A model generated the notes under the pieces. It made no database searches. It was not told the DNA's origin and was given only the letters and a program-made list of their open reading frames with translations. A program made the position numbers and the translations under genes. From Escherichia coli (GTDB lineage: Bacteria; Pseudomonadota; Gammaproteobacteria; Enterobacterales; Enterobacteriaceae), in assembly GCF_003334385.1 (NCBI RefSeq), contig NZ_QOWN01000003.1: DNA of 64,000 nucleotides; one strand, written 5' to 3'. Below, piece by piece: positions 58,110-58,301 of the stretch. Position 1 is the stretch's first letter, and the number at the start of each line of letters is the position of its first letter.

Positions 58110-58301
58110 CTACTTGGTCAACAGCAGCTTGCCAGCCTGAGTTTTACGGAGCAGATATTCTTGCCCGTCATGATCGATAATCAGTTTGCCATCCGGACCT
58201 AACAGTGTCTGGCTGGAAATTCGCCGAATAGGCTGCGGGGAAGCGGTCTTGTGATTGGCATCCGTTTCAGGCGTGAGTTTTCTGCTATCCGTATAACGCA
58301 T
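58110..58301 (-). CDS. ydiE: HemP/HmuP-like small protein
   Basis: ORF 58110..58328; probable start [12 protein letters not shown]…; the C-terminal [27 protein letters not shown] resembles the HemP family. Confidence 0.8.

Follow-up and report, generated by a model that had tools for sequence, protein, structure and literature searches.

Why should a gene of the HemP family, whose relatives stand at the head of haem-uptake operons, be found by itself in Escherichia coli, between aroH and selO and with no haem-uptake genes beside it? The gene is ydiE (b1705), and it was singled out in a 64,000-nt stretch of DNA, referred to here as the window, by a reading that used the sequence alone (the sequence-only reading). 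That reading likened the translated product to HemP/HmuP proteins and left two choices for it, a relic or a small regulator put to a new use. The gene as such is not new: it is annotated, the structure of its product has been solved and it is an established core member, in both E. coli and Salmonella, of the regulon of Fur, a repressor that depends on iron. What is added here is an origin by deletion and a leader element at chuA, which are of modest interest and can be tested.

The window is the reverse complement of positions 1,783,914-1,847,913 of E. coli K-12 MG1655, from which it differs by 13 substitutions (at 5316, 8251, 18669, 20001, 29549, 30047, 31920, 36188, 37908, 38794, 40025, 43712 and 54618) and by no indels, and a 25-kb stretch is 100% identical in many phylogroup-A genomes. 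The strain is a close relative of K-12, or a phylogroup-A strain, and is distinct from MG1655 itself. The annotation of MG1655 shows no haem transporter in these 64 kb, in agreement with what the sequence-only reading had said of the window. The features discussed below are collected in Table 1.

Table 1. Features of the ydiE region, in window coordinates, and copies of the C-rich leader element, in the coordinates of the loci (L numbers) in which they lie.
Feature	Position	Strand	Remarks
ydiE (b1705), coding sequence	58110..58301	minus	63 codons and a TAG stop; ORF and translation, identity to PDB 4YNX, annotation
HemP (PF10636) domain, codons 27-63	58113..58223	minus	Pfam match; His44, Tyr49, C-terminal KLLLTK
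N-terminal tail, codons 1-26	58224..58301	minus	fast-evolving (dN/dS about 0.5-1.0); outside the Pfam domain
Fur box	58324..58348	minus	two overlapping 19-mers offset by 6 nt; 23-47 nt 5' of the ATG
Candidate sigma-70 promoter	58337..58365	minus	-35 TTGCTC (58365-58360), 17-nt spacer, -10 GATAAT (58342-58337)
Hairpin of 11 bp, 3' of the aroH stop	58403..58428	minus	-20.9 kcal/mol, z=-4.5 against shuffles
aroH	58433..59479	minus	same-strand gene upstream of ydiE; conserved left anchor of the hemP locus
selO (ydiU)	56670..58106	plus	convergent neighbour; conserved right anchor; hemRSTUV precede selO in other genera
Element copy, L001 (Sakai chuA)	11635-11602	minus	
Element copy, L018	291-325		
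Element copy, L027	10200-10228		
Element copy, L160	2951-2981		

The ydiE product and its iron-responsive promoter

The resemblance to HemP/HmuP is borne out by profile searches. Residues 27-63 of YdiE match the Pfam hemP model PF10636 over its whole length (model positions 1-37 of 37; E=3.1e-15, 56 bits), and the full protein scores 136 bits against the NCBIfam equivalog NF007559, for which the cut-off is 77. The 63-amino-acid protein of the window is identical in sequence to PDB entry 4YNX, "Uncharacterized protein YdiE"; the Salmonella orthologue (2LOJ; E=3.5e-19) and RPA2121 of Rhodopseudomonas palustris (2JRA) have also been solved. The depositors of these structures assign no function ("Uncharacterized protein", "Putative cytoplasmic protein"), and the title of 4YNX names no ligand. 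EcoCyc and RefSeq carry the gene product as "PF10636 family protein YdiE" and PGAP as "hemin uptake protein HemP".

YdiE has the general format of the family, being shorter than 90 amino acids, variable at the N-terminus and conserved in its C-terminal domain. In an alignment of 50 family members His44, Tyr49 and Leu51 are invariant, and the KLLLTK tail matches the family motif. A C-terminal His and Tyr and a tail of the KLILxK type are recognized features of HemP proteins, and the His and Tyr have been reported to bind haem (PMC9241770). From these residues, and by analogy with its relatives, YdiE would be expected to bind haem and to have regulatory activity. HemP proteins are also recognized by a gene position next to a haem receptor or uptake operon; ydiE has no such neighbour, a feature which describes the typical context rather than a property of the protein. 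A DNA search for distant relatives found no HemP paralogue of ydiE in E. coli genomes.

The sequence-only reading had ydiE convergent with selO, as it is, the two stop codons being only 3 nt apart, and upstream of aroH, where the orientation has to be reversed, since aroH precedes ydiE on the same strand. The hairpin between aroH and ydiE keeps its stem among Escherichia while the loops vary; it is likely to be the aroH terminator, insulating the Fur-controlled promoter of ydiE. It was overlooked by the terminator scan because it has no clean T-run, and was found by hand and by folding. No Rfam families were found around ydiE.

The same reading had suggested looking for a Fur box upstream of the gene and for expression under iron limitation, and both are found. 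The box consists of the 19-mers GATAATAAGAATCATTGTT (58342..58324), which agrees with the Fur consensus at 15 of 19 positions, and AATATTGATAATAAGAATC, which agrees at 14 of 19. In a full mismatch scan of both strands it is the top consensus match in the whole 64-kb window; a strict search, allowing at most three mismatches, gave no match. The box appears to lie over the -10 hexamer of a candidate promoter, a -35/-10 pair read from the sequence by eye, the generic promoter scan having called none for ydiE on the minus strand. Of 13 sequences compared from Escherichia, Salmonella and Citrobacter, 12 share the segment TTGATAATAAnAATCATTGT without a change, the 13th row (C. sedlakii) being unusable as the wrong start had been picked, and the -35 element (cTTGCt) and the spacing are likewise conserved across these genera.

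Published expression data agree with control by Fur and iron. In a set of nine E. coli strains ydiE forms part of the core Fur regulon (PMC10164565), and a fur mutant of Salmonella shows 7.4-fold derepression of the gene (PMC3212961). In a fur deletion of BL21, ydiE went down, the sole gene of the core Fur regulon that did not go up, and this is unexplained (PMC10164565). Induction of ydiE has also been described in iron-limited uropathogenic E. coli (UPEC), and in Salmonella in egg white.

Some smaller features of the region may be recorded here. The ATG of ydiE has no Shine-Dalgarno sequence in front of it, and the leader at 58302-58322 is A/T-rich (attattaatttttATG); an obvious Shine-Dalgarno sequence is likewise absent from hemP of Enterobacter and Salmonella. 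Given the position of the putative -10, the predicted 5'UTR of ydiE is about 25-30 nt long. The second-best Fur match in the window, CAGAATGATAAAGATTCTC (14 of 19) at 55909-55927, overlaps the start of rflP/ydiV (55894), which could mean that this anti-FlhDC factor is under iron control or could be a chance effect of AT-rich sequence.

The aroH-selO locus across the Enterobacterales

The statement of the sequence-only reading that HemP genes usually head haem-uptake operons holds for distant relatives, for Enterobacter and for the metagenome loci described below. Distant family members show the canonical order hemP, TonB-dependent receptor (TBDR) gene, hemS, hemT, hemU; among the relatives sampled, one hemP adjoins a different receptor and some are unlinked. 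In Enterobacter sp. BIGb0383 the order is ppsA, ppsR, aroH, hemP, hemR (the TBDR), hemS, hemT, hemU and hemV, followed by the convergent selO and then by rflP, nlpC and btuD; the full hemPRSTUV set thus occupies the exact place of the lone ydiE of E. coli. Another Enterobacter lineage has the same gene order, traced through hemV, and Proteus mirabilis, one of the Morganellaceae, has aroH-hemP-TBDR-TBDR-hemS-hemT. Escherichia, Salmonella, Citrobacter and Klebsiella (K. pneumoniae) have hemP only, and in Klebsiella, too, it stands downstream of aroH.

The HemP proteins of the Yersinia enterocolitica hemPRSTUV operon and of the aroH-hemPRSTUV loci of Enterobacter and Proteus belong to the Pfam family of YdiE and carry the C-terminal His, the Tyr and a KL(I/L)LTK tail. 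Enterobacter HemP is 61-65% identical to YdiE, and its gene shares both the position after aroH and a homologous Fur-box promoter (cgcTTGCCc...GATGATAATGATTATTATTGTTATAT); the Fur box of Proteus hemP is homologous too. The difference lies in what follows: in Enterobacter, Proteus and Yersinia hemP is succeeded by genes for the receptor, HemS and an ABC transporter, whereas in the window ydiE is succeeded by the end of selO.

A wider sample was obtained by scanning metagenome contigs for the hemP-hemR intergenic element described in the next section; 80 loci were analysed of at least 120 matches. In 60 of the 80 listed loci hemP lies directly 5' of the element. Among the listed loci that are informative on the point, aroH is immediately upstream of hemP in 38 of 42, and in 13 of 14 the element is followed, 5.65-5.9 kb further on, by a convergent selO. 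The AroH proteins of the listed hemP-linked loci are 72-91% identical to that of E. coli.

The simplest reading of these arrangements, and one supported by the synteny, is an ancestral aroH-hemPRSTUV-selO locus that lost hemRSTUV in one or, probably, several deletions, so that ydiE was left an orphan. The full operon is taken as ancestral because it is present in the outgroups, an argument from parsimony rather than from a dated tree; independent insertions of hemRSTUV are the alternative. Under the deletion reading, early Enterobacterales would have carried hemP, hemR, hemS, hemT, hemU and hemV between aroH and selO, and about 5.7 kb encoding the receptor, a haem-processing protein and the ABC transporter would have been lost toward Escherichia, Salmonella, Citrobacter and Klebsiella, leaving hemP alone.

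In Salmonella arizonae and diarizonae a hairpin, CCGCCAGC...GCTGGCG, lies between ydiE and selO (L011, about 4181-4215; L012). It comes directly after the ydiE stop, and its first arm, CCGCCAGC, matches the first repeat of the hemP-hemR element, which has the equivalent position in Enterobacter. The likeness hints at a scar left by the lost operon, perhaps reused as a terminator, and could also be due to chance.

A leader element common to chuA and hemR genes

In two reports (PMC9131926, PMC11442138) HemP/HmuP proteins are described as haem-binding proteins that exert positive control over receptor genes. According to the same reports, HmuP of E. meliloti and ChuP of C. violaceum act post-transcriptionally, by way of direct repeats (HmuP-responsive elements, HPREs) in the 5'UTR, and HmuP of B. 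japonicum and HemP of B. multivorans are described as transcriptional. The latter two resemble YdiE in family, and are presented there as haem-binding, DNA-binding activators or coactivators with positive control of a haem receptor operon; according to PMC9241770 they bind promoter DNA at an inverted repeat that is rich in G and C. An inverted repeat of this sort is not apparent in the chuA leader, whose repeats are direct, nor at ydiE. PMC9241770 also assigns a negative action to HemP of S. maltophilia, the sign of regulation thus not being fixed within the family, and the role of HemP has been untested in Yersinia (PMC5827684).

YdiE is like HmuP and ChuP in being small, in belonging to PF10636 and in being iron-controlled. 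HmuP and ChuP are encoded beside their main target, whereas YdiE, for which activity is presumed by analogy, has no receptor gene linked to it. A siderophore receptor gene, vbuA, is under the control of ChuP as well (PMC9131926), and since this target is a distant one, action in trans is possible for such proteins.

The chu locus of E. coli has no HemP-like ORF upstream of chuA. A 53-amino-acid ORF in front of the Sakai chuA was considered as a degraded hemP and rejected, as tblastn with five HemP queries gave a best E of 0.5, in the wrong frame. What does lie upstream of chuA is a C-rich bipartite element, GCCAGCCACCCnGG and AGGCAGCCAGC separated by 5-25 nt, which is found 28-62 nt before the starts of receptor genes of the ChuA/HemR type. 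The chuA leader sequence, TTTTCGCCAGCCACCCCGGTATTAACCCAGGCAGCCAGCATTTTTT, aligns with two enterobacterial hemP-hemR intergenic regions; the element occurs in Enterobacter also, whose HemR is 74% identical to ChuA, and Proteus has a diverged copy. The chuA leader sequence resembles the published HPREs of C. violaceum: target leaders of HmuP and ChuP have direct repeats of the GCCAGCC type some 25-50 nt 5' of the start, and the chuA and hemR leaders are very similar, with GCCAGCC at -63 and GCCAGC at -35 in chuA. HmuP-responsive elements are said in PMC9241770, citing Amarelle 2019, to be absent from the Gammaproteobacteria, and the leader sequences found here disagree with that statement as there paraphrased.

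The pairing of GCCAGC repeats at about -60 and -33 was seen in 5 of 5 leaders of haem receptor genes or receptor genes linked to hemP, versus none of 15 Fur-regulated leaders of K-12 (fhuA, fepA, fes, fepD, entS, fepB, entC, fepE, fiu, fhuE, cirA, fecA, fecI, pqqU and yncE). The strict form of the element is present on at least 120 metagenome stretches. Among the 80 listed loci, 57 have the order hemP, element, ChuA-like receptor gene, and 12 have the receptor gene and no hemP, eight of these 12 matching chuA of E. coli in type. In a few cases (e.g. L093, L109 and L116) the element stands before genes that are unrelated or lack an identification. In E. coli the chuA leader is single-copy and confined to the chuA-positive genomes, which number 2237 of the 5426 complete genomes searched with chuA of O157:H7 Sakai. 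Within the window no C-rich element was found near ydiE.

The element is not included in Rfam, in which the only entry at chuA is the known shuA thermometer, which the element abuts. RNAalifold, applied to 15 enteric leaders, gave a weak stem (-7 kcal/mol) whose G-C pairs are broken by C/A mismatches; the flanks are fixed by the search pattern, and covariation in this stem therefore cannot be assessed.

In the window, GCCAGCC...GCCAGC occurs at 7673-7712 and at 8398-8421 on the plus strand, two matches against 0.12 expected from shuffles. By coordinate mapping both lie inside a coding sequence, antisense to ynjE, and probably reflect codon composition rather than regulation. About 715 E. coli plasmid records, mostly of conjugative F-type plasmids, contain a TonB-dependent receptor that is 42.5% identical to ChuA, for example NZ_CP124333.1, 6196-8166 (L159, 2920-4890), annotated as a "hemoglobin/transferrin/lactoferrin family receptor" and followed by a DUF4198 gene. 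The C-rich element is absent from the leader of this F-plasmid receptor gene.

The chuA leader has been studied in its own right: from the mapped transcription start the 5'UTR is 291 nt long, Rho stops at +271, the region +177 to +217 is repressive for Rho termination, and a further, unidentified factor that modulates termination at +271 has been postulated (PMC9002310). The element, at +229 to +262, falls between the repressive region and the Rho stop, a short way 5' of the FourU thermometer. YdiE is the sole HemP-family protein of E. coli, and the chu locus has the element and no hemP of its own; we therefore propose, tentatively, that YdiE may act on chuA (shuA in Shigella) in trans. Released from Fur and probably responsive to haem, it would work through the +229 to +262 element to increase read-through or stability of the message. 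Against this link, the published repressive region maps upstream of the element, and the conservation of the element could reflect the common ancestry of chuA and hemR together with a constraint that has nothing to do with HemP; the published statement that Gammaproteobacteria lack HPREs also counts against it. The literature searched gave no link of YdiE to chuA, to any other target or to a phenotype.

Retention and possible roles of YdiE

The ydiE locus is present in 5423 of the 5426 complete E. coli genomes, in single copy and at least 95% identical, and the coding sequence of O157:H7 is the same as that of K-12. About 3,190 chuA-negative genomes keep it; with ydiE in 5423 genomes and chuA in 2237, the retention of ydiE in E. 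coli is independent of chu. Where Sakai carries its chu island, MG1655 has dctR right next to yhiD, and the strain of the window, being K-12-like, is therefore very probably chu-negative. Natural disruptions are rare: about a dozen genomes lack full coverage of the 801-bp selO-ydiE-aroH stretch, and a few have an IS1 or IS5 within it (NZ_CP115984.1, NZ_CP184143.1, NZ_CM184318.1).

Compared with its counterparts in Salmonella, Citrobacter and the rest of Escherichia, ydiE has a dN/dS of 0.02-0.08 over the HemP domain (codons 26-63), and between genera the synonymous sites are at or close to saturation. The first 25 codons evolve about ten times faster than the domain, and their length differs between genera.

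Purifying selection of this kind, seen alongside saturated synonymous sites, largely refutes the idea that ydiE is a functionless relic that has not yet decayed, an idea that can appeal to the lost operon partners, to the missing Shine-Dalgarno sequence and to the lack of a reported phenotype. It also has to contend with a Fur box and -35 element that are invariant in Escherichia, Salmonella and Citrobacter, with transcription that responds to iron, with the orphan kept by Klebsiella as well, and with a gene that is intact in more than 99% of the 5426 E. coli genomes; we regard it as very improbable. The word "relic" used by the sequence-only reading thus holds in the sense of a surviving first gene and promoter of what appears to be an ancestral operon, and fails in the sense of a decaying gene. 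It is also improbable, if less so, that YdiE serves in the cytoplasm as a small buffer or chaperone for haem, produced during iron scarcity and leaving gene expression unaffected. The protein is tiny and Fur-induced, its invariant His and Tyr are implicated in haem binding, and the family has no recognisable nucleic-acid-binding domain (PMC9131926, PMC11442138). Yet every characterised relative alters the expression of a receptor gene, ChuP is reported to bind haem weakly (Kd about 18 uM; PMC9131926), and the tight coupling of hemP to a conserved leader element points to regulation.

A regulator kept for other iron-acquisition genes in all Enterobacteriaceae, such as those for a siderophore receptor or for haem handling, whatever the state of chuA, deserves more weight than either of these, and we still think it rather unlikely. 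The control of vbuA by ChuP offers a precedent, the many chuA-negative E. coli genomes that carry ydiE would be accounted for, and unlinked HemP genes are known from other bacteria as well. Also in its favour, selection on ydiE is strong in Salmonella, for which haem use is reported to be absent (PMC3212961), and control of chuA therefore cannot be the entire reason for retention; some other role must exist in Salmonella. What speaks against such a wider regulator is the failure of the paired repeat to appear in any of the 15 Fur-regulated leaders of K-12 (a set of selected leaders rather than whole genomes), the finding that no E. coli genome has the chuA leader twice, and a searched literature that reports neither target nor phenotype.

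The reading we favour, and hold to be probable overall, is that ydiE is the retained hemP, together with its Fur-controlled promoter, of a deleted hemRSTUV operon, and that it encodes a HemP-type factor for which chuA, where present, is the likeliest target. In its product the conserved domain, made up of the C-terminal 37 residues with the presumed haem-binding His and Tyr, would be preceded by a tail that is disordered and evolves fast. In iron-replete cells Fe-Fur, bound to the box over the -10, would keep ydiE off, and under iron limitation the gene would be transcribed. By analogy with its relatives, YdiE would then serve as a haem-responsive positive factor for the gene of a TonB-dependent receptor, in chu-carrying strains most likely the unlinked chuA, by way of the C-rich leader element. 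A K-12-like strain, probably without chu, would have no recognisable cognate target, and its YdiE would be idle or serve another one. For the strain of the window, then, ydiE most likely encodes a HemP-type regulator that is induced by iron starvation and lacks a cognate receptor gene.

The orphan status of ydiE thereby gains a concrete origin, in a regulator and promoter that would have outlived the operon they headed, and the leader element common to hemR and chuA offers a cheap and direct way to test what YdiE does, the product of a y-gene left for decades without an assigned function. YdiE becomes a candidate for the additional factor postulated in the post-transcriptional control of chuA, a gene of importance to EHEC, UPEC and Shigella in acquiring haem. 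If the proposal is true, it would add a regulatory layer to this well-studied virulence gene and would mean that control of the HPRE type operates in the Gammaproteobacteria. It would also explain why an orphan hemP is conserved throughout the Enterobacteriaceae, with the YdiE of chu-negative strains either stranded without its target or serving a further one.
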